A stretch of 61,707 nucleotides of DNA from Coriobacteriales bacterium. Lineage in GTDB: Bacteria > Actinomycetota > Coriobacteriia > Coriobacteriales > UMGS124. The notes beneath the pieces are model-generated. The model saw only the letters and a list, made by a program, of their open reading frames with translations, ran no database searches and was not told where the DNA came from. A program made the translations under genes and the position numbers. The stretch covers positions 1-61,707 of the forward strand of contig DBEYOB010000149.1 in the NCBI GenBank assembly GCA_048173955.1, read 5' to 3'. Of this stretch, positions 1 to 60,146 are shown one piece after another; position 1 is the first letter of the stretch, and every line of letters begins with the position of its first letter.

Positions 1-1
1 G

Positions 2-442: not shown

Positions 443-476
443 CGGGCGCAGCGGGGGACACGCCTTCCGCGGGCCC

Positions 477-1241: not shown

Positions 1242-1312
1242 CTTAGACACCTCCGCCGTCGTGTACCGCGCGGGTCGCCCCGTGCTCTCCCTTGGTGTCA
1301 GGATAGCCCCTC

Positions 1313-2707: not shown

Positions 2708-2804
2708 GCCGCCTCCTCGTGCCGTCTCCATGCCGCGATGTCCTCTATGCCACATTTGATGCATGCGGCGGGGCTGGTGTTGCGGCCGTCGTACGTGCGG
2801 GCGG

Positions 2805-2830
2805 TTTGCAGGCAAGGGGTTGCCTGCAAA
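2805..2830. promoter_or_regulatory. Perfect 11-4-11 inverted repeat TTTGCAGGCAA-GGGG-TTGCCTGCAAA in the divergent LuxR/flavoprotein intergenic region. Candidate operator.
   Basis: Read directly from the sequence. It lies about 100 bp upstream of the LuxR start (2707) and about 235 bp upstream of the flavoprotein start (3063), next to an AT-rich patch containing TATAGT. Confidence 0.4.
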
Positions 2831-3062
2831 ACAAATATAGTCTACATGCTGGTAAAACCTTGTCTATACCCCATAGGTTTACTGACCCCCGATGCACGTC
2901 AGAGACGCCCGGCGGGTGACTAACCGTTTTGCGATATATGCAGCGTCCCGCTTGCCCGATACCTTTTTGCGTGGAGCGCGGAGCGCGGTGCCCTGCCCTG
3001 CCGGCGGCGCCCGCAGCGCGATTCTCCCGATTGTGTTTCCCGACAAACGGAAGGGGTTCACC

Positions 3063-43736: not shown

Positions 43737-46700
43737 TTACGCGAAGTACGCCACGCCGCCCTCGAACAGCGGCTGGTAGGTGTTGCCCGGCACGTTCTTG
43801 TAGAGGCCCACGCCGCTGCGCTCGCTGTGGCCCATCTTACCGAAGATGCGGCCGTCGGGGCTCGTGATGCCCTCGATTGCCAGCACACTGCCGTTGGGGT
43901 TCACCGCCAGGTCCATGCCCGGCACGCCGTCGGCGTCCACGTACTGCGTGGCGATCTGGCCGTTGGCCTTGAGCTGCGCGACCGTCTCGGGGGAGGCGAC
44001 GAAGCGGCCCTCGCCGTGGCTGATGGCGACGGTGTGGACGTCGCCGACCTCGCACTTGCTCAGCCAGGGCGACAGCGTCGAGGCGACGCGGGTGTCCACG
44101 AGGCGGCTCTGGTGGCGGCCGATGGTGTTGAACGTCAGCGTGGGGCAGGTGTCGTCCATCGGGCGGATGTCGCCGAAGGGCACCAGGCCGAGCTTCACGA
44201 GCGCCTGGAAGCCGTTGCAGATGCCCAGCATCAGGCCGTCGCGGGCCTGCAGCAGGTCGCGCACCGCCTCGGTGACCGCCGGGGCGCGGAAGAACGCCGT
44301 GATGAACTTGGCGCTGCCGTCGGGCTCGTCGCCGCCCGAGAACCCGCCGGGCAGCATGACGATCTGGCTGTCGCGGATGGCGTCGACCAGGGCCTGGGCG
44401 CTCTCGGTCACCGCCTGGGGCGTCAGGTTGTTCACGACGAGCACGTGCGCCTCGGCCCCGGCGCGCTCGAAGGCGTGCGCGGTGTCGTACTCGCAGTTGG
44501 TGCCGGGGAACACGGGGATCACCACGCGCGGTTTGGCGACGCGCGGGCCGGTGTAGACGTGTGCCGCCTTCTCGCCGAAGCTCACGGTCTCGACCTTCTC
44601 GCCTGCGCCGCGATAGGGGAACACCCCCTCGATCGCGTGCTCCCACATCTCCTGCAGGTCGGCGAGGTCGACGGTCTCGCCGCCGGCCGAGAACGTGTAG
44701 TCGGCGCAGGTGCATCCGATGGGTACGACGCTCGCGTTGGCGGTGGAGTCGGGCAGCTCGGCGCCCTCCTCGAGCTCGACGACGAAGCTGCCGTAGGCCA
44801 GGTTGAACAGCGCGTTTTGCGGGAACACGGCGTTGGCCGCAAACCCGATGCGGTTGCCGACGCACATCTTGAAGAGCGCCTCGGCCAGCCCGCCGTAGCC
44901 CGGGGTTGACACGGCGAGCACCTTCTCGTCGGCGATGAGCTTCTCGACCAGGTCGAACGCCTCGAGCAGACCCTGCGCGTCGGGCACGATCGAACCCATG
45001 TCGGCGGTCGGCTCGACGACCACGACGCGGCTGCCGGGCTGCTTGAACTCGGGCGACACGATGCGGTCGACGCTGCCCACGGCGGTGGCGAAGCTCACCA
45101 GCGTGGGCGGCACGTCGAGCTGCTCGAAGCTGCCGCTCATCGAGTCCTTGCCGCCGATGGCTCCCACGCCGAGGTCGGCCTGGGCCATGAGCGCGCCGAG
45201 TACCGAGGCGACGGGCTTGCCCCAGCGCTTGGGTTCGTCGCGCAGCTTCTCGAAGTACTCCTGGAACGTGAGGTACGCCTTGCGGTGCTCGAAGCCGGCG
45301 GCCACGAGCTTGGATACGCTCTCGACCACGGCCAGGTATGCGCCCGTGAACTGGTTCTTCTCGGACAGGTAGGGGTTGAAGCCCCACGCCATGCCCGAGC
45401 ACGTCGAGGTCTCGCCGTCGACGGGCAGCTTGGCCACCATCGCCATGCTCGGCGTGAGCTGGGTGGCGCCGCCGAAGGGCATGAGCACCGTGGCCGCGCC
45501 GATCGTGGAGTCGAAGCGCTCGGAGAGGCCCTTGTTCGAGGCGACGTTGAGGTCGGTCACCACGGAGCGCATGAGCTGGGCGAGCGAGGTCCCGCGCCAG
45601 GCGGGCGCGTAGTCGTCGCCCTTCTCGACCAGGACGCGGGCGTGCTTGGGCGCGCCGTTGGAAGCGAGGAAGTCGCGGCTCACGTCGACGATGGTGGCGC
45701 CGTTCCACATCATGCGCACGCGCGGCTCGGCGGTCACCGTGGCGATGGGCGTGGCCTCGAGGTTCTCCTCGTGGGCATAGGCGATGAACTGGTCGACGTC
45801 CGCGGCCGCCAGCGCAACGGCCATGCGCTCCTGGCTCTCGGAGATGGCGAGCTCGGTGCCGTCGAGGCCGTCGTACTTCTTGGGCACGGCGTCGAGGTTC
45901 ACGAGCAGGCCGTCGGCGAGCTCGCCCACGGCCACGCTCACGCCGCCGGCGCCGAAGTCGTTGCAGCGCTTGATGAGGCGGCACGCGTCGCCGCGGCGGA
46001 ACAGACGCTGGATCTTGCGCTCCATGGGCGGGTTGCCCTTCTGCACCTCCGCGCCGTCCTTCTCGATGGACTCCACGTTGTGCGCCTTGGAGCTGCCCGT
46101 GGCGCCGCCGATGCCGTCGCGGCCCGTGCGGCCGCCGAGCAGTACCACGACGTCGCCGGGGGCGGGCGTCTCGCGCCTCACGTGGTCGGCCGGGGTGGCG
46201 CCCACCACGGCGCCGATCTCCATGCGCTTGGCGGCGTAGCCGGGGTGGTACAGCTCGCTCACCTGGCCGGTCGCCAGGCCGATCTGGTTGCCGTAGCTCG
46301 CGTAGCCGGCCGCGGCGGTCGTCACGAGCTTGCGCTGCGGCAGCTTGCCGGGCATCGTCTCGGAGACGGGCACGGTGGGGTCGGCCGCGCCGGTGACGCG
46401 CATGGCCTGGTAGACGTAGCTGCGCCCCGAGAGCGGGTCGCGGATGGCGCCGCCCAGGCAGGTGGCCGCGCCGCCGAAGGGCTCGATCTCGGTGGGGTGG
46501 TTGTGGGTCTCGTTCTTGAAGAGGTAGAGCCAGTCCTGCTCCTCGCCGTCGACATCGACCTTCACCTTGACGGTGCAGGCGTTGACCTCCTCGGACTCGT
46601 CGACGCCGGTGAGGACGCCCTTGGCCTTGAGCCAGCGCGCGCCCAGGGTGCCCATGTCCATGAGGCACACGGGCTTGGCGTCGCGACCGAGTTCGTGGCG

Positions 46701-47513
46701 CATCTGCAGGTAGCGGTCGTAGGCCTTGGCGACCTGCGGGTCGTCGATCTGGAAGCTGTCGAGCTGGGTGCCGAAGGTGGTGTGGCGGCAGTGGTCGCTC
46801 CAGTAGGTGTCGACGACCTTGATCTCGGTGATGGTGGGGTCGCGGTCCTCGGAGCGGAAGTACTCCTGGCAGAACCGGATGTCCGCCAGGTCCATGGCCA
46901 GGCCGCGCTCGGCGACGAACGCGGCGAGGCCCTCGTCATCGAGCTCGTTGAAGCCGGTCAGGACCTCGACGGGCTCGGGGGTGGGGACGTCGGCCGCGAG
47001 CGTGTCGCGCAGGGCGAGCGCCGTCTCGCGCGCCTCGACGGGGTTGATGACGTAGCGCTTGATGGCCGCGAGCGCCTCGGGGGCGAGGTCGCAGTCGAAC
47101 GCGTAGAGCTTCGCGCAGCGCACGGTGGGGCGCTCGCCCTGGGAGATGAGCTGGATGCACTCGGCGGCGGAGTCGGCGCGCTGGTCGAACTGGCCGGGCA
47201 GCGACTCCACGGCGAACAGGGTCGCGCCCGCACCCTGCGCGACGATGCCCTGGCCGCTTCCGGGCGCGCCGACCACGGCGCCCGCGACGGGCAGTTCGCG
47301 CGACGCGTTGTCGACCTGCGGCTCGGAGAACACCGTGGGCACGCACGCCTCGAAGAGCTCGTCCGAGATGCCCTCGACGTCGTAGACGTTGATGACGCGC
47401 AGCGTCGCCGCGGGCGGCAGCCCGTCGCCGACGACGGTGCGCAGCTCGGCGAGCAGCTGCTGCGCCTCGACGTCGAAGCCGGGTTTCTTCTCAACGTAGA
47501 TGCGTGAAACCAT
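43737..47513 (-). CDS. purL: Phosphoribosylformylglycinamidine (FGAM) synthase, large single-chain form
   Basis: 1258 aa. N-terminal MVSRIYVEKKPGFDVEAQ, AIR-synthase-like repeats, and a C-terminal glutamine amidotransferase with GICNGFQ and a later HGEG. Confidence 0.97.
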   Translation of the reverse strand: MVSRIYVEKKPGFDVEAQQLLAELRTVVGDGLPPAATLRVINVYDVEGISDELFEACVPTVFSEPQVDNASRELPVAGAVVGAPGSGQGIVAQGAGATLFAVESLPGQFDQRADSAAECIQLISQGERPTVRCAKLYAFDCDLAPEALAAIKRYVINPVEARETALALRDTLAADVPTPEPVEVLTGFNELDDEGLAAFVAERGLAMDLADIRFCQEYFRSEDRDPTITEIKVVDTYWSDHCRHTTFGTQLDSFQIDDPQVAKAYDRYLQMRHELGRDAKPVCLMDMGTLGARWLKAKGVLTGVDESEEVNACTVKVKVDVDGEEQDWLYLFKNETHNHPTEIEPFGGAATCLGGAIRDPLSGRSYVYQAMRVTGAADPTVPVSETMPGKLPQRKLVTTAAAGYASYGNQIGLATGQVSELYHPGYAAKRMEIGAVVGATPADHVRRETPAPGDVVVLLGGRTGRDGIGGATGSSKAHNVESIEKDGAEVQKGNPPMERKIQRLFRRGDACRLIKRCNDFGAGGVSVAVGELADGLLVNLDAVPKKYDGLDGTELAISESQERMAVALAAADVDQFIAYAHEENLEATPIATVTAEPRVRMMWNGATIVDVSRDFLASNGAPKHARVLVEKGDDYAPAWRGTSLAQLMRSVVTDLNVASNKGLSERFDSTIGAATVLMPFGGATQLTPSMAMVAKLPVDGETSTCSGMAWGFNPYLSEKNQFTGAYLAVVESVSKLVAAGFEHRKAYLTFQEYFEKLRDEPKRWGKPVASVLGALMAQADLGVGAIGGKDSMSGSFEQLDVPPTLVSFATAVGSVDRIVSPEFKQPGSRVVVVEPTADMGSIVPDAQGLLEAFDLVEKLIADEKVLAVSTPGYGGLAEALFKMCVGNRIGFAANAVFPQNALFNLAYGSFVVELEEGAELPDSTANASVVPIGCTCADYTFSAGGETVDLADLQEMWEHAIEGVFPYRGAGEKVETVSFGEKAAHVYTGPRVAKPRVVIPVFPGTNCEYDTAHAFERAGAEAHVLVVNNLTPQAVTESAQALVDAIRDSQIVMLPGGFSGGDEPDGSAKFITAFFRAPAVTEAVRDLLQARDGLMLGICNGFQALVKLGLVPFGDIRPMDDTCPTLTFNTIGRHQSRLVDTRVASTLSPWLSKCEVGDVHTVAISHGEGRFVASPETVAQLKANGQIATQYVDADGVPGMDLAVNPNGSVLAIEGITSPDGRIFGKMGHSERSGVGLYKNVPGNTYQPLFEGGVAYFA

Positions 47514-47842: not shown

Positions 47843-48332
47843 TCAGTTGAGATAACCGATGCTGGGTTCGTTGGACTGCGAGTCGAGGTGGCTGCGGCCC
47901 TCTATTCCGAGGTGAGTGAGAGCGTCTGCGAGTCCAGGTAGTCCGGTGAGGTTGTGCGGTGCTTGAAGAACCCTTCCCTTATGCCAGAGTGTCATGCGTG
48001 CCTCAAATTGAAAGGCATTGCCGTAGGGTCGTGTGGCGGCGTTGTTCTTTGCGTTGCGGAATACGGGGCGCTCATCCGAGTGTGTAGCTGTAGCTACCGA
48101 GCCACCTCTGCGCGTCATACGTTCTTCCGTCTGGGTTGCAGCGCAGGTGTTCGAGAGACATGAGGCGTCCAGAGAAGGTCTCGGTGGCGCAGTTGTTGTG
48201 GCGATGGCGCGCGAATGTCTCTGCTGCCGAACAGGTTGTGCTGAGCGCCCCGACCGCGTGGATATCCCTCCTTTGTGGAAATGGGCCTACAGATTCGGAG
48301 CGCGACTCTCCCTCTCTGACCCTCTGGCCCAT
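47843..48332 (-). pseudogene. Possible degraded transposase/integrase-core fragment at the left edge of the low-GC island (very tentative)
   Basis: Two overlapping short minus-strand ORFs in different frames. One contains HNNCATETFSGRLMSLE, which weakly resembles the DNAxxExFFxxLKxE segment of rve-type transposases. Spacing to the expected upstream motifs does not fit well. Confidence 0.2.
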
Positions 48333-48482
48333 GCGCTTCTTTGACTGAGGGCTACGTTAGAGGGGTGGAGGTGATTTGTCTTCGAGTGGCAGAGGCGAAA
48401 AACTGGATGTAAAGTGTTCTATTGCGTTCGAAAAACTTAATCGCAAAACTTGAGAAAGCATGTTGTCGATTGCAGAAGTAAT

Positions 48483-48488
48483 TATAAT
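48483..48488 (+). promoter_or_regulatory. TATAAT -10 box in the AT-rich leader of the island operon. GAGGAGGG RBS at 48509-48516.
   Basis: Read from the sequence. No good -35 at 17 nt spacing. Confidence 0.3.
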
Positions 48489-48524
48489 CACCTGTAAGAA
48501 AGCCTAGCGAGGAGGGATGCGCCC

Positions 48525-51500
48525 ATGGGTTTTATCTCGGCAATCCGAGCTTTACTCAAGCGTAGAGTCTGTGTCGTTTTTCACGGAGTCGATACCGTCT
48601 ATGACGGGTGCGAACATTCCCCTGGCTATGACATTACAGGGTTGCCGAATGGATATACGGCTGATGTCTCTAATCTGGTCAGTATTCGAGATGCGACACC
48701 TGCACCGGTCGTTGTCAACTCGGCCGTTTGCAGTATAAAAAATATGGATGGAAAAGACGTGACGCACCGTTTCGCCATTTCATTCACGTCGACAACAATC
48801 ATGATTAGGCCTGCAGAGCTGATTATCAAAACGCTCTCGATGGATAAAGTGTACGACGGCGTGCCTTTAAAGCCTCCCTCTGCTGAGGTTTGCGGGCTTA
48901 TCGGGGAAGACGAAATTGTTTTCGATACAGTCGCCTCCCCTGCGGATGTAGGGAATTATTCAAGTCTTGTTAGGATTGATTGGGAACGTTCATCAGCAAG
49001 GCAGTCTAACTACAAGATTCGATTCCTAAAGGGCTCATTAGAAATAAAAGCACGCCCTCTCACTGTGATTGCCGGCAGTGCCGAGAAGGAGTATGACGGA
49101 AAACCACTTAAATATGACGCAGTAAATATAGAAGGACTTATTTCAGGCGAAACGCTATCTGTTCGTTGCATTGGGGAAATCACCGATGAAGGCGAGACAA
49201 CAAATTGTGCATTGATACGCTGGGGCGACTCTACGGCGCGACCTCAAAACTATGAGACGTCTCTGATTGATGGGCAGTTGGTTGTAATCAAAAGAACGTT
49301 CGATGTCGTAGCCTCGCCAACGCGATGCGTGTTCGATGACGAATCGCATTTTCCAAGACTGGAAATTCCCGACGGGGCAACAGTTCTATACAAAAGATGT
49401 GAGCAATATCGGGAAGTTGGGAAATATAGCGTTGGGTATACCCTGAAAGCCCCTCATTACTTCGATATGGAGGGGGTCGCCTCCCTTGTTATTGAACCGG
49501 CGCCGCTTGTTGTGAGGATTGTGGGGGGGCGTTTCCGTTATGACGGTATGGAACATCGAGCATCAATTGAGGTGGAGGGTTTGCCTGCGGGATACACCGC
49601 AGAGGTGACATCGAATGCAGTAGTAAAAAATGTTTCCGATGGACAAGTTATTGCAAGATGTGACGCTATTTCTATAAAAGATTCTCGCGGTATCGATATG
49701 ACACATTGTTTTTATGTGGACACAGCGCTCGAGGCTATTATCGAAGTGGTACCGACAACTTTACTTGTTTGCACATATGATGCAAGAAAAGAATATGATG
49801 GCAAGGCAATCGAGACGGGGGGTAAAGTTACCGGTCTCAAAAAGGGTGAGGCCGTTACTTTTAAGACAACTGGTCGCCAAATTGAAGTGGGAACAAGCCA
49901 AAACACTTATGAGCTGCTATTTGATGGAACTGCTCGCAAAGAGAATTACATCATTCGTGAGGCCCTTGGCAACTTGACCGTCGAACCGGCTTCAATCCGT
50001 GCAGAAGGCCTGAAACATGGCAAAGAGCAGGATTTCCCAACTGCTATCCAGATGGGCGAGTCGCTGATTGACTTACGAGGGAAGACGAAGCCTCGTCGAA
50101 TGATTGACGAATGGCGAACAGTAAAAGCAAGAAAAGACCGGATGTCTCGCCCGTATCGGGCGCGTCCGGTTGCTGAGCGTCCCGATCTGGACGAGGCGGG
50201 GCTTGGGAAGGACTTCAAACCGAGTTCCAACATCGTGCCGGCCCCGCTTCCGAAAAGACCATTCGTTCAGAAGCTCAGAGAATTTGAGACAAGGGCTTGT
50301 GAAGAGATAAAGACGCTCAACGAGAAGGATAACGAGGGCCTTTTGTTCCAGTGCTTTGGTCCGTTTGCAACCGAGCTTTCCGAGCTGTGTGAGGCCTTTA
50401 AGGAGTTATTTGATTATTACCGCACTAACCAAACAGGCGCACTCGTTCAAATTCATTCTAATTTTCAATGTGCATTTCTTCTGTATGTTGCCAATCTTGC
50501 CAGGAGTTGCTATCGGGATGACACGCTATGGCAGCGTCTTTTTAAAGAAAACGGGATTCGCGACCAGGGGACCCGTGTTCAGTTCAAAAAGATGTTCATC
50601 TCATATCTCTACCGTCGCGGGATGCCTGTCTATGAAGCCAATGAACGACACACCTACATGCTTGATACGGCCTTGCTACATTGTGGCCTCACGGCCGATC
50701 TCTGGCAATCACTCTGGAAGGATTCTTTTCTGCCTTTGGCGCGGGCGGCACGAAATGGATTGGACGGCATGCATCCCGATTTAACAGTCGATGAGGTCGT
50801 AGGCTCCATCCTAGGGCACGACGTAAAATTTAAGCCCAACGAAAGGGCATTCAATGTTTTGGTGAAAGCACCTCATGACGCGCTTCTTTCCCTTTTTTCG
50901 GCTTCATGGGAGGTTGCTCTCCAGATAGAAAAGAGCCATATTGAGAATGGAGGCTCTCATCAAGACATTGTGTTTGTGACAAGCTTTGGTCTGTCTGCTA
51001 CTGCTATGGACGCTCTGAACGAGGTTGTTCAAAAGAAAGGATCGAGAAGGACATCGGCGAAGGAAGTCGTATATTTCGACCGTGTCGGCTTTATCCTGGA
51101 TATGGAAAAGGACTGTGCCTGCATAGATTGGAATGCGACCCATTTCGATTCGTCATTTCAAGGAAAGAAAGTCGACTTCTACATCAACGGAGAACGCAAA
51201 CATCGAGAAGAACTAGTCACTCGAGCTGACGGATGCGTGCTGCCAAAAGGTTCTATCGAAATCAAACCTCGCGCTAGCTACGACATCGAAGTCCGAATCA
51301 TTGAGACGGTCGGTGGCGAGGAATGGGAGTGCGGATCATTCGCGCAGAGCTTCCAAAACAACAAGCCGGGTTGCTATGAGTTCATCTACGACGCAGTGAA
51401 GCGGCAATATCGATATCGCGAGCCTAATGTGCGCCTGCGGAGAGGGAAGGAAATCGCCTATCTGGTTGATGAGGGGCTTCGTGTCGAAGGTCGCGGAGGC

Positions 51501-52898
51501 ATGGAGCTCCTTGAAGAAAAAGATGCTCGCGGCGACTGGGAAGGAATGTCCATCTTTGTTTTTCAGGTTAAGCCGGGAGCTTCGGGTGCGATCATTAAAT
51601 GTGATACGGACGAAGAGCAGAGCGCTTGGCATGAAGACTACCGTATTCGCATCGACAAGGATAAAATCATCGGACGTACATCGGACGGCCTAGATTTGTA
51701 CGGACATGCTTTGGGTAGTGGTCGGACGGATGTCGCTTTGCCGTCCATCCTTATCGAGGCGTTTGAGGGTGCAGAAGCGGCTAGTGACCTCGAGATAGTC
51801 TTTTCCCGGAATGGTGTTAGAACCGAGCTGGAGACGACATGTAGCCCCGTCGAGGGGGCTGATTCGGTTGCAATTCGCCTTACTTTCTTGGCCCGTACTC
51901 AAGGTTTTGGCATCTCAAGTTCTTGTGAGCTTGCGGTTTATCAGAAAACGAGTGGCAAAACGGTCATGCGGTATCGCTTCGCGGTTGTGCCGCTGCAGGG
52001 CTTTAGACTTGTCGATGGAAAAGTGCTAGCACGTGAATCTCAGGCTATCTACGAGTTTTATGCCACTGAGGATATCGAAGTATCTCACGGGGAAGACGAA
52101 CTCGAACATATTGCCGTGGGTGAGCAGTTTAATTTTCAAGAGCCGTTGGATAAAGAATATGCCACTTTACACATCGCAACGCAGTTGACATCAATCGATG
52201 TTTGCCTGGCGTTGGTTGGCATAGTGGTCAAGATTCCCGAGAAGCTTTTTAAGATTGAAGAGACGGGACAAATTTGTTTGGGGTCGTACTTCGGCGTGCC
52301 TTTATCCCTTGCTGATGGGGCGATTTCAATCTCGTCTTTCTGCCCGCGTCGCAATCGGAGTGTCATGGTAAGACTCGGTGATGAAAAACTCGTTTATAAA
52401 AATTTGGAACGTTCAAGCGACATCTCCGCTAACGTTTTCTTGGATTTGGAGAAGTTTAAACCTTCAAGTGAAAAGGGTGTCCCGTTTGTGCGCGATATCC
52501 CGTTAGAGCTAACGGTTGCCTATGGCCATGAATTAGTAGGCGACAGACTTATGCGCTCTTCGGCAAAACTGCCCATTTTGGGGTGCTATCAAGGTCTCGG
52601 TTTTGAGACATGTAAGATTTATGCGAAAGAATCGGGCTTTTATCTTGGTTTTGGAGGGCATGAGGGGCGCACGGTTCCGGTTTGCGATGTAGTCGTGACT
52701 ATCAAAGACACCGCTATGAGGAAAGTGCTGCTCACTCAAGAACTCGATGCAGGGTGCGGTGGGTTTGATTTGCCCGTGGAGATAGCGCGGATGTATGAAG
52801 GGCGAAAAAGACTTTCGGTAGAAGTTGCTCCAACTTCGTTGTTTGGAGATGTTGATGATAGAGGCAAGTTGGTTTACGAAATGAAGCGAGGCGCGTAG
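48525..52898 (+). CDS. Giant (1457 aa) hypothetical protein. N-terminal third has six MBG/YDG-type repeats, the remainder has no recognisable domain, and there is no signal peptide. Candidate DruH-like partner of the downstream helicase.
   Basis: Uninterrupted 4.4-kb ORF in AT-richer DNA with a strong RBS. About 80-aa repeats carry K/RxYDG..G[LE]..NYxI..GxLxI. The stop lies 1 nt before the next ATG. Confidence 0.85.
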   Translation: MGFISAIRALLKRRVCVVFHGVDTVYDGCEHSPGYDITGLPNGYTADVSNLVSIRDATPAPVVVNSAVCSIKNMDGKDVTHRFAISFTSTTIMIRPAELIIKTLSMDKVYDGVPLKPPSAEVCGLIGEDEIVFDTVASPADVGNYSSLVRIDWERSSARQSNYKIRFLKGSLEIKARPLTVIAGSAEKEYDGKPLKYDAVNIEGLISGETLSVRCIGEITDEGETTNCALIRWGDSTARPQNYETSLIDGQLVVIKRTFDVVASPTRCVFDDESHFPRLEIPDGATVLYKRCEQYREVGKYSVGYTLKAPHYFDMEGVASLVIEPAPLVVRIVGGRFRYDGMEHRASIEVEGLPAGYTAEVTSNAVVKNVSDGQVIARCDAISIKDSRGIDMTHCFYVDTALEAIIEVVPTTLLVCTYDARKEYDGKAIETGGKVTGLKKGEAVTFKTTGRQIEVGTSQNTYELLFDGTARKENYIIREALGNLTVEPASIRAEGLKHGKEQDFPTAIQMGESLIDLRGKTKPRRMIDEWRTVKARKDRMSRPYRARPVAERPDLDEAGLGKDFKPSSNIVPAPLPKRPFVQKLREFETRACEEIKTLNEKDNEGLLFQCFGPFATELSELCEAFKELFDYYRTNQTGALVQIHSNFQCAFLLYVANLARSCYRDDTLWQRLFKENGIRDQGTRVQFKKMFISYLYRRGMPVYEANERHTYMLDTALLHCGLTADLWQSLWKDSFLPLARAARNGLDGMHPDLTVDEVVGSILGHDVKFKPNERAFNVLVKAPHDALLSLFSASWEVALQIEKSHIENGGSHQDIVFVTSFGLSATAMDALNEVVQKKGSRRTSAKEVVYFDRVGFILDMEKDCACIDWNATHFDSSFQGKKVDFYINGERKHREELVTRADGCVLPKGSIEIKPRASYDIEVRIIETVGGEEWECGSFAQSFQNNKPGCYEFIYDAVKRQYRYREPNVRLRRGKEIAYLVDEGLRVEGRGGMELLEEKDARGDWEGMSIFVFQVKPGASGAIIKCDTDEEQSAWHEDYRIRIDKDKIIGRTSDGLDLYGHALGSGRTDVALPSILIEAFEGAEAASDLEIVFSRNGVRTELETTCSPVEGADSVAIRLTFLARTQGFGISSSCELAVYQKTSGKTVMRYRFAVVPLQGFRLVDGKVLARESQAIYEFYATEDIEVSHGEDELEHIAVGEQFNFQEPLDKEYATLHIATQLTSIDVCLALVGIVVKIPEKLFKIEETGQICLGSYFGVPLSLADGAISISSFCPRRNRSVMVRLGDEKLVYKNLERSSDISANVFLDLEKFKPSSEKGVPFVRDIPLELTVAYGHELVGDRLMRSSAKLPILGCYQGLGFETCKIYAKESGFYLGFGGHEGRTVPVCDVVVTIKDTAMRKVLLTQELDAGCGGFDLPVEIARMYEGRKRLSVEVAPTSLFGDVDDRGKLVYEMKRGA

Positions 52899-52899
52899 C

Positions 52900-55800
52900 A
52901 TGGCAAAAACACCAGAAGATAAGTTCGATCCAATCGAGGCGGCGCGGACAATCTCGGAATCGTATAGAAGTTACCTCGCTAGTACGATTCATTTTGCCGA
53001 CCAATCGTTTCAGGAGCAGCTTACTGAAATATTGGCTACTCCGGGAAATTTAGCAAAAGGACCCTTCTTGGAGGCTGCCCCGCCGTATAAGCAGGATGTT
53101 TCGATACGTGAGCTTGTTGACAGCGGCGAGTTGTGTCGCAGCATGCTGGAACTCGGCGGGGGAGAGCGCGATAAGTTTGACCCGGATCGCAAGCTATATG
53201 TTCATCAGGTCCGTGCAATCCGAAAAGCTTTAAGTGGGCATAACTATATTGTGGCGACGGGAACGGGTTCGGGTAAAACCGAATGCTTCTTGCTTCCCAT
53301 CATCAACGATATCCTGTGCGAATTTGAGGAAGCTGGTCCCAGTGCCGGCGTGCGTGCCATATTGATATATCCCATGAATGCGCTTGCCAATGATCAGCTC
53401 AAGCGCTTACGAGAGCTGCTCGCTGGCACTTCGGTGACATTTGGAAGATATACAGGCGATACGCAAGAAACCCAAGTTGAGGCCGAGAGTTCATGGCGTG
53501 AGGAGAACCCCGAACAGAAGCGATTGCCCAATGAGGTGATTTCTCGAGAGGCCATTCGCAAGGCACCTCCCAACATTCTGTTGACAAACTACTCCATGCT
53601 TGAATACCTGCTTTTGCGCCCGAAGGACGCCGACCTGTTCGGGCCGGTTTTTGGCAGAAACTGGCGACATCTCGCAATTGATGAGGCGCATGTCTACTCG
53701 GGTGCATTGGGCACTGAGGTGGGTTATCTAATCAGGCGGCTCAAGGCGCGCATCGAAGCTCAAACAGGTACTGCGCCCAATGTGAGATGCTACGCCACGT
53801 CGGCAACCATGGGATCAAAAGAAGAACTCCCCAAAATAGCGGAGTTCGCTGCCGGTTTATTTGGCGAAGCTTTCACGACGGAAGGCGATATCGATGTGAT
53901 TACCGGGTCTATTGATAGCCCGGAAAGAGATTTAAGGGAACCGTGGGGTTCGCTGCCTCTTTCCACGTGGTCACAGCTTGCGGAAGAGCTGCGAATTAAT
54001 GCCGACATCCAGGAATTGCTTTCAATACTTACAGGTTTGATTCCAAATTGCGAGACTGATGATTTGCTGCGTTCCGAAGACGCTCAGATTGGACTTGGGC
54101 ATGTGCTTTTAGGCGAACTGACCACGGCAACAGTTGTCCGTTCCGCTTCAAATGGTTTAACTGACTTGACCGCGATTGAACGAACTGATTTGATGGAAAT
54201 AACTGGCCTTGACGTGCGTATTCTTGTCGATATTGTTGAAGTCCTCGCATGGGCCCAGCGATCAAAAGGTGTTCCTATATTAAGCAGCAGATACCATCTT
54301 TTTTTACGAGGTCCTGAGGGCATATTTGCCAATCTCGCGACAAAGAAGCTCATTGCTGCCAAGACAATGGGAGAACCCTTTGATGACGAGGGGCATAACA
54401 TTCCCGTGTATGAGTTGGCGGTATGCAGACATTGTGGGCAAGCTTATGTGTTGGGGAAAGAGGAGGCGTCCGAAGACAGGAAGTGCAGCTTTCTCAGTCC
54501 GCGACATAGTGGCTTGGACAAGGGTGAGGATTTTATTCCTCGGAGCTATTACCGGCTCATGAAAGACGAAGACGATTCAGTCGAAGCTGAGAAAGTGTTC
54601 TGGCTCTGCAGCGTTTGTGGCTCTTTGCATAACGCCAGAGACGGCGGAGGGCATGTGTTCTCACATGAACCATGCGAGCGAATTCCAATTGCTTTTGGAA
54701 GTGCCACCGAAGAAGAGGCCACATGTCCCTACTGTGGTTATAAAAGTCGCCATGCCATTCAGCCCATGCGCGTTTCTCCCGAGGCGGTCGGCAGTGTCGT
54801 GTGTTACGATCTCGTTCGTCTCATTCCCCCGTTCGAAGTGGATGACGAAGAAACTGAAGAGGATTTATTTGAACTCGACGAAGACGATCGCCGCAAAGCC
54901 GGCAGTGTCATCTGCTTTTCCGACAACCGCCAAGATGCTGCCTATTTTGCTCCGGCATTGGAGCGAACCTACAGGCGAATCACTATTAGGCAGATTATTC
55001 GCGAAGCAGTTGACGATTTGTATAAAGAGCAGAGTAGACGCGTGTGCCCTTCGGCGGTCTGCAGTTGGATATCGCAAGAGGGGAGAAAGAGGTATCGATC
55101 ACTATTCGAAAAAAGGGACAGCTGGCAAGTTTCACAAGCGTGGGTTTGGAGCGAGCTGGTTGCGGACGACTATCGCAACAGTCTTGAGGGGCTGGGGGTT
55201 GTTCGGGTCGAACTTACCGATTTCTCCGAACTTCTTGGAGAAAAGGTTGTTTCTAGAGCGGTAGACAAGATGCTAGCCGGACTTGGTGAGGAATTGGCTT
55301 GGGTCACAGCGGACGACTACCGAGTCTTTGTCCGGTACTGCTTTGATTCACTTCGAAGCCAAGGGGCAATTGAAGCTCCTCAGGGAGTTGCTTATAATCT
55401 CTTCTATACAAGGGTGCGTCCGAAGCTTGTAGTTCTCGGCGATGGTGACATTTCTAAAAAGGTTATCTCATTCATCGGAGGAGAAAAGACTATCGAAAAT
55501 CGACGCAGCGACTTCATTCGTCGTTATGCCAGAGAGGTGCACGGTGCCGATGTGACACGTGGCGAGTGCGCAAGCTTGCTCAGATCGATATTTGATTTTA
55601 TGAGCAAGCTTCTAAGCGCTGCTTCGAAGCGGAGCGGCATGGATTTTGTTCAAAATGAGGGAGGAAAGGGGTTCTGGTTCAATCAGAACCTTTGGACTAT
55701 GGTCCCTCACAGGGATTCCGATGCTGTTTGGATTTGCGACACCTGTGGCTGCGAGAGGCATACCAGTACCAATGGGGTATGCCCGACCTACCGCTGCGAA

Positions 55801-57723
55801 GGCCACATGGTAGAGACGAACTACGCTGAGGTGAAACATAAAGACGAACATTATAAAGATGTCTATGTTGACGAGCCTTTGCCGATTTGCGTTGAAGAAC
55901 ATACCGCCCAATTGTCTCGGGAGCAGGCACGCAATGTTCAGCGTGATTTTATTAAAGGAAACGTCAATGTTTTGTCGTGTACTACGACGTTCGAGCTGGG
56001 TGTTGACGTCGGCGATTTGCGGGCAGTCTTCATGCGAAACATACCTCCTCGAGCTGCCAATTACACACAGCGAGCCGGTCGAGTTGGTAGGCGTGCGGGA
56101 AAACCGGGATTTGCCGTGACTTTTGCCCGTCTGCGGCCTCACGATATAGCGCTTTACAAAGACCCCGAGCGGGTCATTCGCGGTTCTTCTCCTGTTCCCT
56201 GCTGCTATCTTGACAACGATGCTATCGCCCTGCGTCACGTGTTTGCCATTGCTCTTTCGGAGTACTTTAGATTCATGGACAAAGAAGGCGAAAACCAGTC
56301 TCGTCACTATCACAAATTCATGAATCTGTCTGAGGCCACGCCCGAGGGGCTCTCTCTATTGAAAGACTATCTTGACACTAACCCCGAGGGGATAAAGATC
56401 CAGATTGAATCGATGCTGCCTAAAAATAAGACGCGAATTGTTCGTCAGGCGCTTGAAGTTGACTCATGGGGATGGGTTGATAGGCTGGTCGGTCCGGAGG
56501 GTCGTTTGGCCCGCACACACAGACTGAAGCACGACGATTACGAGCGTATATATTTTGCATTTAATGAATGCCAGGAGGCGGAGGAGCGCGGTCGAGCCCG
56601 TGGTCTACTCGGAATGCTAGAGCGAATGGAAGCAGAACTGACCATTTCCGTCTTAGCAGGAAACGGAATTTTGCCAAAGTACGGTTTTCCAACTGATTTG
56701 GTTGAACTTAAAATCGACAATCAGGGGAGTTTTTCCTTGAAAAGTGAGCTGCAGCTCCAAAGGGGACTGCGCCAAGCAATTAGAGAGTATGCTCCTGGCA
56801 ATGAGATTATTGCGAACAAACGAGTATGGAAGTCTGTCGGTATTCGCAAACCGAGGAATCACAAGCTTGAGACGCGCTATTACGGAAGGTGCGAGTGTGG
56901 GGCGTTCGTGTGGCCAGTTGAGGACTATTCAAAAAAGGCGGTTTGCCGCGTATGTGGCAAGGACGTCACCCTATCTGACGTGATGATCGTTCCTTCGGAA
57001 GGCTTTTTTGCGAAGGAGGAGACGAATAAAGATGCCGGAGAGCAGCGACCGCGTAGTAGGGGAGGGATAAGGATTGAGTTTTGCCAAAACTGGCCCGATG
57101 AGGCAAAAAATGAAAAGCTTACATTTCCCGGAGGCACGATCGAGGTTCGCTTTGCTGGGAATGCCCAGCTCTGCGCATTAAACACAGCGAACGGCAAAGG
57201 TTTTCAGTTTTGCTCCTATTGCGGCGCTGCCGCACCCAGCGGCGAGCAGTTGGAACATGAGAGATACTGCAACGAGCGGCGAGGTCACCATTACGATGCG
57301 TTGGGCACATCGTTCGTGAGCGACGTACTTGAATTCACGCTGTGTCTTTCCCACAGACCGCGAGAACCTTTCTCAGAAGAGGATTGGGAGTCTCTTGTTT
57401 GGGCAATCTTTGCGGCGGCTGTGGATATCTTCGAACTCCCTGAGATGGAATTGGGAGGTACGTTTTATCCGAATCCGAGCGGGTCTCAATCGGTAATGCT
57501 CTATGACGATGTGCCCGGCGGTGCTGGCCATGCTCTTCAGATTGCTCGCCATGTAAGAGGGGTGATTATGCGGGCGCATAAAATCGTATCTGAATGTACC
57601 TGTGGTGAGGATACATGCTGCTATGGATGTCTATGCAACTACTACAATCAGGCGAGTCAGTCTCATTTGTCAAGAGGGGGTGCGCTTCGGATTCTTAATG
57701 CCCTGTTTGGATTAGATTACTAA
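52900..57723 (+). CDS. Giant (1607 aa) SF2 DEAH-box helicase fused to a C-terminal DUF1998/MrfA-type zinc-binding domain. DruE-like.
   Basis: Motif I ATGTGSGKT (aa 119-127), motif II DEAH (aa 261-264, nt 53680-53691), SAT (aa 301-303), motif VI QRAGRVGRR (aa 1057-1065). DUF1998-type signatures LPKYGFPTD (aa 1258-1266), LYDDVPGGAGHA (aa 1534-1545) and CTCGEDTCCYGCLCNYYNQ (aa 1566-1584). Confidence 0.9.
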   Translation: MAKTPEDKFDPIEAARTISESYRSYLASTIHFADQSFQEQLTEILATPGNLAKGPFLEAAPPYKQDVSIRELVDSGELCRSMLELGGGERDKFDPDRKLYVHQVRAIRKALSGHNYIVATGTGSGKTECFLLPIINDILCEFEEAGPSAGVRAILIYPMNALANDQLKRLRELLAGTSVTFGRYTGDTQETQVEAESSWREENPEQKRLPNEVISREAIRKAPPNILLTNYSMLEYLLLRPKDADLFGPVFGRNWRHLAIDEAHVYSGALGTEVGYLIRRLKARIEAQTGTAPNVRCYATSATMGSKEELPKIAEFAAGLFGEAFTTEGDIDVITGSIDSPERDLREPWGSLPLSTWSQLAEELRINADIQELLSILTGLIPNCETDDLLRSEDAQIGLGHVLLGELTTATVVRSASNGLTDLTAIERTDLMEITGLDVRILVDIVEVLAWAQRSKGVPILSSRYHLFLRGPEGIFANLATKKLIAAKTMGEPFDDEGHNIPVYELAVCRHCGQAYVLGKEEASEDRKCSFLSPRHSGLDKGEDFIPRSYYRLMKDEDDSVEAEKVFWLCSVCGSLHNARDGGGHVFSHEPCERIPIAFGSATEEEATCPYCGYKSRHAIQPMRVSPEAVGSVVCYDLVRLIPPFEVDDEETEEDLFELDEDDRRKAGSVICFSDNRQDAAYFAPALERTYRRITIRQIIREAVDDLYKEQSRRVCPSAVCSWISQEGRKRYRSLFEKRDSWQVSQAWVWSELVADDYRNSLEGLGVVRVELTDFSELLGEKVVSRAVDKMLAGLGEELAWVTADDYRVFVRYCFDSLRSQGAIEAPQGVAYNLFYTRVRPKLVVLGDGDISKKVISFIGGEKTIENRRSDFIRRYAREVHGADVTRGECASLLRSIFDFMSKLLSAASKRSGMDFVQNEGGKGFWFNQNLWTMVPHRDSDAVWICDTCGCERHTSTNGVCPTYRCEGHMVETNYAEVKHKDEHYKDVYVDEPLPICVEEHTAQLSREQARNVQRDFIKGNVNVLSCTTTFELGVDVGDLRAVFMRNIPPRAANYTQRAGRVGRRAGKPGFAVTFARLRPHDIALYKDPERVIRGSSPVPCCYLDNDAIALRHVFAIALSEYFRFMDKEGENQSRHYHKFMNLSEATPEGLSLLKDYLDTNPEGIKIQIESMLPKNKTRIVRQALEVDSWGWVDRLVGPEGRLARTHRLKHDDYERIYFAFNECQEAEERGRARGLLGMLERMEAELTISVLAGNGILPKYGFPTDLVELKIDNQGSFSLKSELQLQRGLRQAIREYAPGNEIIANKRVWKSVGIRKPRNHKLETRYYGRCECGAFVWPVEDYSKKAVCRVCGKDVTLSDVMIVPSEGFFAKEETNKDAGEQRPRSRGGIRIEFCQNWPDEAKNEKLTFPGGTIEVRFAGNAQLCALNTANGKGFQFCSYCGAAAPSGEQLEHERYCNERRGHHYDALGTSFVSDVLEFTLCLSHRPREPFSEEDWESLVWAIFAAAVDIFELPEMELGGTFYPNPSGSQSVMLYDDVPGGAGHALQIARHVRGVIMRAHKIVSECTCGEDTCCYGCLCNYYNQASQSHLSRGGALRILNALFGLDY

Positions 57724-57774
57724 AATATATGTACCGGTATCCCCCCCACGGCGCCTGCATCGCCCGTAACAAAT

Positions 57775-57816
57775 GGCCCCGGGCCGGACGGCGTTCCGCC
57801 GTCTCGGTCCGGGGCC
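57775..57816 (-). terminator. Imperfect GC hairpin followed, on the minus strand, by ATTTGTTA. Candidate terminator of the DUF4012 gene at the right edge of the island.
   Basis: GGCCCCGGGCCGGACGGCG..GCCGTCTCGGTCCGGGGCC forms 8+3+5 bp of pairing with one mismatch and one bulge. Confidence 0.35.
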
Positions 57817-57846
57817 GCTCTCCACTATCTATGCCCCGTCGGCTTC

Positions 57847-59721
57847 CTACCACCGCTGCGCGAGCGGGGTCTGGTGCACCTCCAGCTCCTGGATCGCCTC
57901 CGCGGAGACGGTGACCTGGTAGGTGATCGTGACGCTCTCCTGCGCATAGAGGTTCACGTCGACGCGCCACACGTCGTGGCCGTAGAGCGTCGCCTCGCCC
58001 GCGCCCGCGCCGCTGCTCGCGGCGACGCCCGAGATGGAGCCGCCCGCCGGGGCGACGAGGAACGCGGTGACGAACAGGTCGTCGTCGCTGCGCTTCGCGG
58101 GGCTGTAGCCGATGATGTACGCGGGGGCCACGGCGGCCTCCTCCTGCGTGAAGGTGTTCGTCAGCGTGGTCGACACGCTGTAGGTCACGGTGCCGTCGGC
58201 GTTCTGCACCGACCCGGTGACCTGGGTGCCCATGTTCAGGTACCAGGCCATCTTTGCCCAGGTGTTGTCGTTCACGTAGACGCCGAGTTGCGGCTTGGCG
58301 GGGTCGTTCGGCAGGGCGCCCGTGACGTTCATGCCGCTCATGGCGGACTGGACGGCCTCGTTTTTCGACCAGAACAGGACACGCCCCTCGTCGGCGTCGC
58401 GGCCGACCACGTCGAGCAGCTGCCCCAGGTCGAGGGCGCCCAGGTCGCTCATGACGCGGTCGGCGACCAGGCCGGCCACCTCGGCGAAGAAGGGGTCCTG
58501 GTATTCGGGGTCGAGCCTCCAGTAGATGTCGCTCGAGAGGATCTGCGCCGCGTTGGTGCCGTCGACGACGGTGCCGTCGCTCGTGGTGACGCCGCCCACC
58601 AGGGTCAGGATGTCCTGCACGAACACCGGGTCCATGGCGATGACGCCGTCGACCGCCTGGCCCATGTAGGCCTGCCACGCCTCGGCCATCAGGCTCGCGG
58701 CGCGCGGGAAGTCGGGCGTGCAGTTGAGGTTGCCGGGGCTGATGCCCATGTCCGCCCCGAACAGGGCGATTTCCTCGTCGGTGAGCTGGAAGGTGACGTC
58801 GCGCTTGCCCGAGATGGTGGTGAAGCCGCCCAGGGTGGCCTGGCCGTTCTCGACGGTGACGGTGCCCCACGCGCCGGGGAACCCGCCCGTGGCGCGGACC
58901 TCGGAGTTGCACTGCGCGATGATGAGGTAGGTGCGCGGCCCGTTGCATCCGATGACCTCAGGGATCTGTGCGACGAGGGGGCCGTAGGCGTCGAGCAGCT
59001 CGCTTGCCTGGGCGAGCGGCTCCCTGAGCTGGTCGACCACGTCGTTGAGCTGCGAGATCTTGAAGGTGCCGAGCGACTCCAGGCGCGCCGAGGCGTCGTC
59101 GACCGCCGGCTCGACCTGGGTGACGAGGCTGCAGTACTGCGTGAGCGCGGCGGTGTTCACGCTCGAGCCCGACAGCAGCGAGTCGAGCGGGTAGGAGGCC
59201 AGGGTCGCCGCTGCCGGCTCGAGCGCGCCGCCGATCAGGGTGTCGGCGATCGAGAGCAGCTCGCGGGCGCCCTCGACGTCGCCGCCGTAGCCGGGGACGC
59301 GGGCGGCCAGGTCCCAGATGGGGCCGTCGAGCTCCTCCCGCAGGGAGTCGACGCCCTGCCGCAGGTCGGACGTGGCCTGCTGGAGCGCCGCGCCGTCGCC
59401 GTTCTCGACGGCCGCCTGCAGGTCGTCGACGGTCGAGGAGAGCGAGCGCGCCCCGTCCAGGGCGCGCTGCACCGAGCCGTATGCCATGGTGCCGACCACG
59501 GCGACCGCCGCGATGAGCGCGACGACGATGCCGAGGACGATGAACAGGGGCGCCTTGCTGCGCTTGCGTCCGGACGTGCCGCCGGAGCCGCGGCCGCCCG
59601 AGGGGCGGCCGGCCCTGCCGGTCGGCGCGCTGAAGCGGTTGCCCTGGCGCGCGTAGGGGTTGGCGTCGTACGGACTGCCCGCGTAGGGGCTGCTGTCGTA
59701 GGGGCTGGAGCTGTATGGCAT
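57847..59721 (-). CDS. DUF4012-type membrane-anchored envelope protein
   Basis: Ser/Pro/Tyr-rich cytoplasmic N-terminus, a single TM helix (APLFIVLGIVVALIAAVAVVGTMAY), then a large extracytoplasmic domain with NSEVRATGGFPGAWGTVTVENG, typical of DUF4012. ATG 59721 with GGGAGGG upstream. Confidence 0.8.
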   Translation of the reverse strand: MPYSSSPYDSSPYAGSPYDANPYARQGNRFSAPTGRAGRPSGGRGSGGTSGRKRSKAPLFIVLGIVVALIAAVAVVGTMAYGSVQRALDGARSLSSTVDDLQAAVENGDGAALQQATSDLRQGVDSLREELDGPIWDLAARVPGYGGDVEGARELLSIADTLIGGALEPAAATLASYPLDSLLSGSSVNTAALTQYCSLVTQVEPAVDDASARLESLGTFKISQLNDVVDQLREPLAQASELLDAYGPLVAQIPEVIGCNGPRTYLIIAQCNSEVRATGGFPGAWGTVTVENGQATLGGFTTISGKRDVTFQLTDEEIALFGADMGISPGNLNCTPDFPRAASLMAEAWQAYMGQAVDGVIAMDPVFVQDILTLVGGVTTSDGTVVDGTNAAQILSSDIYWRLDPEYQDPFFAEVAGLVADRVMSDLGALDLGQLLDVVGRDADEGRVLFWSKNEAVQSAMSGMNVTGALPNDPAKPQLGVYVNDNTWAKMAWYLNMGTQVTGSVQNADGTVTYSVSTTLTNTFTQEEAAVAPAYIIGYSPAKRSDDDLFVTAFLVAPAGGSISGVAASSGAGAGEATLYGHDVWRVDVNLYAQESVTITYQVTVSAEAIQELEVHQTPLAQRW

Positions 59722-60146
59722 GTGCCCTCCCGGGTACGTTCGAGCATGGTCGTGTGGCCGTGCATGGTGGTCGTGCATCCGCCCTGCGCGGTGTCTGGCG
59801 CGCGGGATGGTCCTGCGCCGCGCCGCTGCTCGCGGTGCGCTCCGACGTAGGCGAGGGGGCATTGTACCCGTTGGCGATGGGCATGGTGTGTGGAAGGCCG
59901 AGGGCGGGGCGATGCGGCGCGATCTGCCGGCGTGCCGGAATCGCCGGCGTGCCGCTTACGTGCGCCGTGCGCGGAGGGCGCCTCTGCGAACCGCTGACTG
60001 CCGCGTGCCGCGAATCGCCGACCGCCGCGTGCCACCCGCGTGATGTCCGTGTGACGCCTGGCGCGCGCCGGGCAGCGGGGCTATAATCTGCCCGCTTCGC
60101 GCGGTCGCGCGCGAGTTCCGACGTCTACGGAGGAAGAGGGAGCCCG

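Follow-up and report, generated by a model that had tools for sequence, protein, structure and literature searches.

An adhesin-type MBG/YDG array in a putative partner protein of a compact DruE helicase from Coriobacteriales

Why should a protein that carries an array of adhesin-type domains lack every recognizable export signal and be encoded directly upstream of a defence-type helicase? The question is raised by a contig of a Coriobacteriales bacterium (DBEYOB010000149.1, NCBI GenBank assembly GCA_048173955.1), analysed from position 1 to 61,707 of its forward strand; this whole stretch of 61,707 nucleotides is referred to below as the window. The protein, designated P0001, comprises 1457 residues, and the helicase encoded after it, P0002, is of the DruE type. 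A preliminary description of the locus had recorded six MBG-type units at the N-terminus of P0001 and had ventured that they could form a ligand- or phage-sensing module. The analyses presented here show that the array is genuine, suggest that it stays in the cytoplasm, and point to a surface stalk that seems to have been reused inside the cell, where its most likely role is to space or tether an infection sensor.

A genuine array of six MBG/YDG units

Residues 15-486 of P0001 form six beta-sandwich units in the order A-B-B-C-A-B, which are followed by a linker. The features of this part of the protein, with boundaries and support from hidden Markov models (HMMs) and from an AlphaFold2 (AF2) model with its predicted local distance difference test (pLDDT), are as follows.

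48525-52898, plus strand: coding sequence of P0001, 1457 residues, with helix, MBG array, linker and DruH-position core (open reading frame call)
48567-48797, plus strand: unit A1 (U1), residues 15-91, subtype A (repeat z of 17.5 to A2, HMM boundaries, beta domain in AF2)
48819-49046, plus strand: unit B1 (U2), residues 99-174, subtype B, of YDG/MBG_2 type (YDG 16.3 bits, MBG_2 13.9 bits, HMM, AF2)
49059-49286, plus strand: unit B2 (U3), residues 179-254, subtype B (YDG 14.8 bits, repeat z, HMM, AF2)
49320-49493, plus strand: unit C (U4), residues 266-323, a short subtype with the degenerate motif CVFDDESH (HMM, AF2 with pLDDT 80-88)
49506-49730, plus strand: unit A2 (U5), residues 328-402, subtype A (repeat z, HMM, AF2)
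49761-49982, plus strand: unit B3 (U6), residues 413-486, subtype B, the best single match to YDG/MBG_2 (YDG 20.3 bits, MBG_2 16.5 bits, HMM, AF2)
49986-50258, plus strand: disordered basic linker, residues 488-578 (pLDDT below 50 from residue 492; first 19 residues of the core model without secondary structure)

In a Pfam scan of P0001 as a whole, the YDG profile (PF18657) scores 41.8 bits (E 1.3e-10) over three stretches and MBG_2 (PF18676) scores 26.1 bits, so that both exceed their gathering cut-off of 25 bits at the level of the whole protein; single units, at 14.8-20.3 bits, fall below it. Among the single units only the three B units (U2, U3 and U6) score at all, and the A and C units match neither profile. 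The motifs on which the preliminary description had relied (VYDGCEH, KVYDGVPLK, KEYDGKPLK, CVFDDESH, FRYDGMEH and KEYDGKAIE) are all found in P0001, and its assignment of six MBG-type units to residues 14-487 (48564-49985) agrees with the motifs, the Pfam scores, the repeat statistics and the AF2 model, except that only three of the units are classical YDG/MBG_2 domains. The unit ending it had given as general, NYxI..GxLxIxxxP, holds for the three B units; the A and C units end otherwise.

The relationships among the units were established by pairwise Smith-Waterman alignment of the six units as first delimited, each scored against 300 shuffles. U1 and U5 are related at z = 17.5, and U2, U3 and U6 at z = 12.6-17.8, and control comparisons of the units with C-terminal chunks of the protein gave a mean z of 0.17. 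Self-alignment of this kind bears out these two groups of repeats and leaves U4 apart, which is similar to no other unit inside P0001. Self-BLAST of the whole protein yielded no off-diagonal hits because the units are too divergent. Subtypes A, B and C were defined by HMMs built from the unit groups and iterated over relatives, and by these models U4 represents a bona fide third subtype, C, that is conserved in relatives and whose YDG motif has degenerated in P0001.

The AF2 model of residues 1-522, computed with a 16-sequence alignment, agrees with this division of the first 500 residues: it predicts a helix at residues 2-10, then six beta domains set apart from one another and, beginning at residue 492, a disordered tail, with a mean pLDDT of 85.8. 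Its predicted template modelling score (pTM) of 0.41 is that expected of beads on a string. The best Foldseek matches of the array in the PDB are rod-like stalks of tandem beta sandwiches, namely the shaft of the grappling-hook protein GhpA, cadherin ectodomains, extender repeats of RTX adhesins and the Sap S-layer protein. On this evidence the N-terminal third of P0001 is shown to be a genuine array of six adhesin-type MBG/YDG domains, each predicted to fold as a beta sandwich.

Compartment of the array and the N-terminal helix

In which compartment does such an array reside? A search with residues 1-490 of P0001 recovered 158 proteins, and the 117 hits from outside the P0001 family were retrieved and set against 13 full-length family members. 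E values reached 1e-206 within the family and 1e-169 outside it, where the A and B units are homologous to those of MBG_2/YDG arrays in surface proteins, at 25-37% identity over up to the whole 490 residues. The non-family hits are giant multi-repeat proteins in which MBG_2 occurs together with InlB-B/Flg_new, Big_2, cadherin, transglutaminase or FecR domains. P0001 and these giant Gram-positive surface arrays have in common tandem beta-sandwich beads of about 75-85 residues and variation in copy number. However, by a heuristic based on hydrophobicity and LPXTG motifs, an N-terminal signal or transmembrane segment and/or a C-terminal anchor is present in 95 of the 117 non-family arrays and in none of the 13 family members; most of the remaining non-family arrays resemble truncated gene calls. 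The earlier statement that MBG domains typify secreted and surface proteins accords with the first of these counts. P0001 further differs from the surface arrays in its fusion to a DruE-coupled intracellular core and in its extra C unit, a subtype detected by HMM in 0 of the 117 non-family proteins and found only in the DruE-linked family.

The absence of an export signal from P0001 does not stem from a misplaced start codon. The N-terminus is fixed, since an in-frame TAA lies upstream at 48495-48497, no other start codon stands between this TAA and the ATG, and a Shine-Dalgarno sequence precedes the ATG by 9 nt; a genuine upstream start that would add a signal peptide was looked for, and the TAA precludes it. 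The two features concerned are the following.

48509-48515, plus strand: Shine-Dalgarno sequence GAGGAGG, 9 nt before the ATG (read from the sequence)
48528-48566, plus strand: cationic amphipathic N-terminal helix, residues 2-14, GFISAIRALLKRR (AF2 helix at residues 2-10, hydrophobic moment)

The maximal Kyte-Doolittle mean over 12 residues at the N-terminus (MGFISAIRALLKRR) is 1.43, compared with at least 2.5 in homologous surface proteins, which upholds the initial reading that the protein has neither a signal peptide nor a transmembrane segment. The highest 19-residue hydrophobicity anywhere in P0001, 2.0, lies inside a conserved beta region of the core, and a hydrophobicity and motif heuristic identified no transmembrane segment and no C-terminal anchor in the protein. 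Sec, Tat and lipoprotein signals were each considered and ruled out: Arg8 breaks the hydrophobic run, beta-strand 1 of unit A begins directly behind the RR pair, and there is no conserved lipobox Cys.

Composition points in the same direction. Relative to the A and B units of surface proteins, those of the P0001 family are enriched in Cys (1.65% vs 0.29%, p 4e-8), His (2.1% vs 0.58%, p 2.5e-8) and Arg (5.0% vs 0.59%, p 3.7e-9) and depleted in Thr (7.5% vs 13.1%, p 7.4e-9) as well as in Asn and Lys, and in Cys content the array is level with the core (1.8-2.3%). Because none of the 13 members has a signal, transmembrane segment or anchor, and because the Cys and His contents are of the cytoplasmic type, the MBG array of P0001 seems to stay in the cytoplasm.

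What the N-terminus does carry is the short amphipathic helix listed above, which is terminal, has a high hydrophobic moment and a cationic flank, and is conserved in orthologs. Its moment of 0.63 falls between the 95th (0.53) and the 99th percentile of the protein's own 11-mers, and the N-terminal peptides of most family members with a comparable N-terminal extension, termed long forms below, have moments of 0.56-0.80. Most full-length relatives of the long form share the motif MGxFSxxxxLFxRR. The start MGxFS(R/K) presumably resembles helix alpha0 of PspA/Vipp1.

The helicase, the core family and the locus

The partner gene and the two parts of the core that follows the linker are the following.

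52900-57723, plus strand: coding sequence of P0002, a DruE helicase of 1607 residues, compact and without the C-terminal PLD nuclease (PADLOC, Pfam)
50259-51047, plus strand: alpha-helical N-domain of the core, residues 579-841, with invariant W/HGGL-type motifs (AF2 pLDDT about 90, invariant alignment columns)
51048-52895, plus strand: all-beta part of the core, residues 842-1457, an Ig/Fn3-like series that runs to the C-terminus (AF2)

P0001 and P0002 are co-directional and 1 nt apart, P0002 starting 1 nt after the stop codon of P0001. P0002 matches the PADLOC models DruE1 (4.9e-175) and DruE3 (8.1e-160), in agreement with the defence-type helicase originally proposed; Pfam assigns it DEAD, Helicase_C and MZB domains, and YjiV_N appears among the precomputed hits. 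It matches E. coli DruE (PDB 9tu7) at 4.8e-76 but aligns only to residues 18-1736, the last ~380 residues, which constitute the PLD nuclease region of type III-A, being missing, and it ends 29 residues after the MZB domain. These features are consistent with P0002 being a compact, nuclease-less DruE of the III-B or III-like branch described previously (PMC12458937; also 10.64898/2026.05.13.724758). Seven CxxC pairs (residues 509, 570, 609, 946, 1349, 1438 and 1574) are spread across the insertions and the MZB region of P0002, consistent with multiple zinc-binding motifs as in YprA-family helicases.

The arrangement follows that of Druantia III: two co-directional, nearly abutting genes, a large (>1000 residues) partner without annotated catalytic domains upstream of DruE, a helicase with the DEAD, YjiV_N, Helicase_C and MZB/DUF1998 domains of DruE, and a low-GC island that contains both genes. 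P0002 is compact and lacks the PLD nuclease as do most III-B members (PMC12458937), and the nearest known systems to P0001/P0002 are the III-B branch and a Mycobacterium smegmatis system (PMC13316683).

The part of P0001 beyond the array, some 950 residues at first taken for unknown sequence, instead belongs to a definable family with a predicted fold, and DruE follows at every locus checked. AF2 models the core with confidence (pLDDT 91.2, pTM 0.85), which provides the structure prediction proposed for the C-terminal part: a helical domain and then beta domains to the C-terminus. An exhaustive HMMER search with the C-terminal ~880 residues over 1.84 billion representatives identified 90 proteins, 66 of them at E<=1e-30. 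Most are about 1000 residues long with the core beginning near residue 130, and about a dozen carry a long N-terminal extension with the core starting between residues 240 and 1283. The members from named genomes, found with an 11-sequence family alignment, come nearly all from Coriobacteriia (Collinsella, Eggerthellaceae, Adlercreutzia, Ellagibacter, Senegalimassilia and Atopobium) and are all short forms. Neither P0001 nor the family profile retrieved anything relevant among PDB sequences, tblastn with the core as query found no counterpart on the plasmids of PLSDB, and Foldseek comparison of the core with the PDB and BFVD, in a library without a DruH structure, returned only generic multi-Ig/Fn3 chains at template modelling scores <=0.14.

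The short forms (~1000 residues) share the core of P0001 at 30-34% identity over ~880 residues, and a DruE homolog 50-55% identical to P0002 follows wherever the contig is long enough; in the long forms that were checked DruE follows as well, contig extent permitting. Where P0001 has the helix and the MBG array, an (HhH)2 domain of the RAD51-N/RNA polymerase alpha-CTD type is present in the short forms: a 25-sequence profile of their N-termini matches the RAD51C N-domain (6e-6) and the RNA polymerase alpha-CTD (0.011), and also Dpo4/Dbh. Two members, P0019 (1282 residues) and P0069 (1528 residues), have an N-terminal extension of another kind, with long acidic low-complexity stretches; in P0019 the acidic stretch precedes an HhH-like segment. 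On the metagenome contig of the long form P0231 (positions 1-4163), a 635-residue open reading frame and a 750-residue UvrD-type helicase lie directly upstream of the MBG-DruH-like/DruE pair and may represent a second defence system with a Gabija-like layout, suggesting a defence-island context.

Is the core, then, a DruH? E. coli DruH consists of a helical N-domain followed by many Ig/Fn3-like domains (10.64898/2026.05.12.722862, 10.64898/2026.05.13.724758, 10.64898/2026.05.12.724681) and has a helical C-terminal domain that holds a single-stranded DNA/ATP site (2026 cryo-EM preprints). The modelled core of P0001 likewise has a helical N-terminal domain and a long Ig/Fn3-like series, but ends in beta domains with no helical C-terminal domain. 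P0001 gave no match to the PADLOC DruH models even at E=10, and none of eleven relatives matched up to E=1; intact E. coli DruH, the positive control, matches 12 of these models. BLASTP gave no match. An hhalign comparison of a 57-sequence family profile with a 26-sequence DruH profile gave a probability of 0.5%, equal to reversed-profile controls, and domain-wise comparisons also scored no higher than such controls.

One candidate correspondence, between DruH residues 59-142 and P0001 residues 641-723 in the YjiT_N region (hhalign E 0.012), was rejected: reversed controls scored alike (24.5 vs 24.0), and HMMER gave only 1-3 bits. A co-linear match of DruH ~40-142 to P0001 ~626-723 recurs in hhalign and in reciprocal HMMER at background level, and the precomputed hits of one short-form relative include a faint one to YjiT_N. 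The DruH segment concerned is the published essential N-terminal regulatory surface (10.64898/2026.05.12.724681). We regard the resemblance as a lead, not as evidence. The core thus resembles DruH by position, size and general build, and membership in the DruH family fails the tests that were run.

Canonical DruH proteins also differ from P0001 at the N-terminus, where P0001 has the amphipathic helix and the six-unit MBG array. Among the best 120 of 164 canonical DruH relatives, nearly all are 1091-1117 residues long, the others being shorter fragments, and none has an N-terminal extension or an MBG annotation; the combination of an MBG array with a defence helicase is as unusual as first supposed. 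A literature search on MBG domains in phage defence found only unrelated work.

Two plasmid loci were noted in addition. On Clostridium butyricum plasmid pNPD4_2 (NZ_CP013238.1, 2789-10674), a gene for a 1069-residue hypothetical protein overlaps that for a compact 1559-residue DruE by 4 nt. This partner was considered as a bridge between the families and rejected, as it matches neither DruH (PADLOC, canonical) nor the core family of P0001. Evidently, the partners of compact DruE helicases fall into several families that go unrecognized by the tools now in use. On the Streptomyces jietaisiensis plasmid NZ_CP108327.1 (458-12798), a 2267-residue DruE-like helicase is preceded by a 1846-residue type IIG restriction endonuclease-methyltransferase/DrmMI-like protein and a DEAD helicase, and then comes a UvrD helicase; this gene set looks ARMADA/DISARM-like, unlike Druantia III.

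In the window, P0001 and P0002 are the two co-directional open reading frames of a low-GC island, of ~50% GC in a genome of ~70%; the flanking features are given here.

48001-58000: low-GC stretch, about 49-53% GC against about 64-72% in the flanks (windowed GC), in which the second gene ends at 57723
43737-47513, minus strand: purL, the left flank of the island
57847-59862, minus strand: DUF4012 gene, the right flank
47843-48524: spacer of about 680 nt that separates the purL side from P0001, intermediate in GC and with no intact open reading frame

The last ~160 nt before P0001 are AT-rich, though a simple scanner gave no sigma-70 consensus promoter there. At the island borders no tRNA, integrase or flanking repeats were found, nor did the simple scanner detect a sigma-70-like promoter or an intrinsic terminator. 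An identical P0001 protein is present on a second public contig with unchanged neighbours. The best explanation of these features is a horizontally acquired two-gene cassette, probably a Druantia type III-B-like system with a putative anti-phage function.

Stalk, sensor or scaffold

What would the array contribute to such a system? What goes beyond domain identity, gene context and the missing export signals is inferred here, in part from the comparison of long forms. Full-length long forms are built as amphipathic peptide-A-B-(C-B)n-C-A-B-linker-core, with 5, 6, 7 (most common), 9, 11 or 15 units of types A/B/C; the units at either end stay the same while the number of internal copies changes, and units within one protein are 26-62% identical. 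Across seven orthologs of identical architecture the array is 42.5% identical and the core 41.1%, the array being the lower of the two in only 6 of 21 pairs, and the individual unit positions are each conserved. Since the array is as conserved as the core, the fusion of the two is apparently old and under purifying selection, and not a diversifying surface. P0006 (1971 residues) has, amid A and B units, a fourth and classical MBG-like type ('...VYDGxxHxPxV...GNYxG...') at residues ~260-345, 505-597, 675-762 and 837-920, which departs from the A-B-(C-B)n-C-A-B order, and in P0008 a Pro-rich linker of ~190 residues separates array and core.

We read the array as a putative swapped 'address' module placed before a flexible linker, in which DNA binding has been replaced by a helix and a rigid rod. 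P0001 would be the non-helicase partner of DruE, and its MBG rod a spacer that tethers it to the membrane, a mechanism that we prefer while holding it to be plausible and still somewhat short of probable. In this mechanism the N-terminal module would serve localization or tethering and would not be the catalytic or signalling part. In short forms the (HhH)2 domain would keep the partner core on DNA; in the P0001 clade attachment to a surface would fall to the amphipathic helix, the most plausible such surface being the inner side of the cytoplasmic membrane. The array would form a semi-rigid rod that sets the distance of the Ig-rich core, its six units spanning perhaps 20 nm to judge from Ig-like stalks, with the flexible linker adding reach. 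The core would then work in the way published for DruH-type partners, sensing or regulating upstream of DruE and so permitting the helicase to act on phage DNA.

A stalk or tether fits better than a diversifying surface because the array is no more variable than the core, because the variation lies mainly in the internal copy number (5-15) with the terminal units fixed, and because the array occupies the position of (HhH)2 in the short forms. Tethering to the membrane is preferred because N-terminal amphipathic helices, for example PspA helix alpha0, are established membrane anchors (PMC12358876). With the alpha0 helices of PspA/Vipp1 and those of MinE, MreB and N-BAR H0, the helix of P0001 shares the extreme N-terminal place, a length of ~10-13 residues, a hydrophobic face at i, i+1, i+4, i+7 and i+8, and a cationic flank. 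The remainder of P0001 is unrelated to these proteins, no homology is claimed, and membrane binding by P0001 is putative.

Several points weigh against this interpretation. Homology of the core to characterized DruH is not demonstrable, so that the transfer of a DruH-like sensor role draws only on gene position, size and build, and the core family is without the helical C-terminal domain that holds the single-stranded DNA/ATP site of DruH. The amphipathic helix is short and only moderately confident (pLDDT ~60), and packing against unit A or binding to DruE would be alternative roles for it. The rigidity and length of the rod are estimates. Finally, the shift in Arg, Lys and Asn between family and surface units may in part reflect genomic GC and not compartment; Cys and His are less prone to this effect.

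The array might instead enlarge a recognition surface, its six Ig-like MBG units binding structural or late phage proteins and so activating DruE. Precedents exist, as E. coli DruH was proposed to sense late phage proteins through Ig-like domains with positively selected residues (10.64898/2026.05.12.724681) and the M. smegmatis system is activated by a phage minor tail protein (PMC13316683). MBG units are Ig-like, binding-type folds, and the conservation of each unit position across orthologs is compatible with specific binding roles. The figures just given argue the other way, however: the array is not more divergent than the core, relatives differ mainly in internal C-B copy number with the order fixed, the core already has a long Ig/Fn3 series of its own, and the short-form equivalent of the array is a DNA-binding HhH domain, not a protein-binding one. 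The sensing module suggested in the preliminary description is possible, then, though on the unlikely side, and we do not favour it over the tethering stalk.

Still less probable is an assembly scaffold, in which the partner would oligomerize, or DruE or host factors would dock, through the array, the helix or both, so that partner and helicase are brought together. The M. smegmatis system requires DruH and DruE to interact (PMC13316683), dimers of E. coli DruH are functionally relevant and the protein has been discussed as a scaffold (10.64898/2026.05.12.724681, 10.64898/2026.05.13.724758), and tandem Ig-like arrays, such as those of cadherins, often mediate protein-protein contacts. The short forms, however, pair with equally similar DruE proteins (50-55%, same size range) without an array, so that the array is not needed for coupling to DruE, and the DruE proteins of long and short forms are without any obvious extra domain.

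That P0001 is exported or surface-exposed, or that the array is a relic without function left by recombination with an adhesin gene, is very improbable: its A and B units do come from the same pool as surface-protein arrays, and sequence analysis by itself leaves room for non-classical secretion, but no member among the 13 has a signal, transmembrane segment or anchor, the Cys and His contents are cytoplasm-like and match the core, the core to which the array is joined has a cytoplasmic helicase as its partner, and a neutral relic would not be conserved at the core's rate, family-specific C unit included, across orthologs that are ~40% identical.

With the tethering stalk as the preferred explanation, it is enticing to speculate that the DruE partners form a family with interchangeable N-terminal 'address' modules, in which (HhH)2 directs the core to DNA, and the helix with its MBG ruler of 5-15 units directs it to the membrane's inner face, at the point of entry of phage DNA and ejection proteins; this generalization is bolder, and we rate it as rather unlikely. 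The type of system, a DruE with a large partner, was known already. New are a family of DruE partners missed by defence-finders, a natural swap of HhH for an MBG stalk within one partner family, and the intracellular recruitment of an adhesin-type array with a matching change in composition. The 2026 Druantia III papers leave open by what means DruH-type partners detect an infection and then pass control to DruE, and the exchange of HhH for helix and MBG array at one position offers a ready-made experiment on partner localization, just as the variation in length from 5 to 15 units provides a direct handle on the idea of a molecular ruler. As the PADLOC DruH models miss such partners, compact-DruE systems are under-counted, notably in gut Coriobacteriia, and the cytoplasmic MBG array cautions against annotating 'MBG' as 'surface protein'. 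If the notion of address modules is true, P0001 and its relatives would be the first case of an adhesin stalk at work inside the cell, and would illustrate a principle of spatial surveillance in helicase-based defence.

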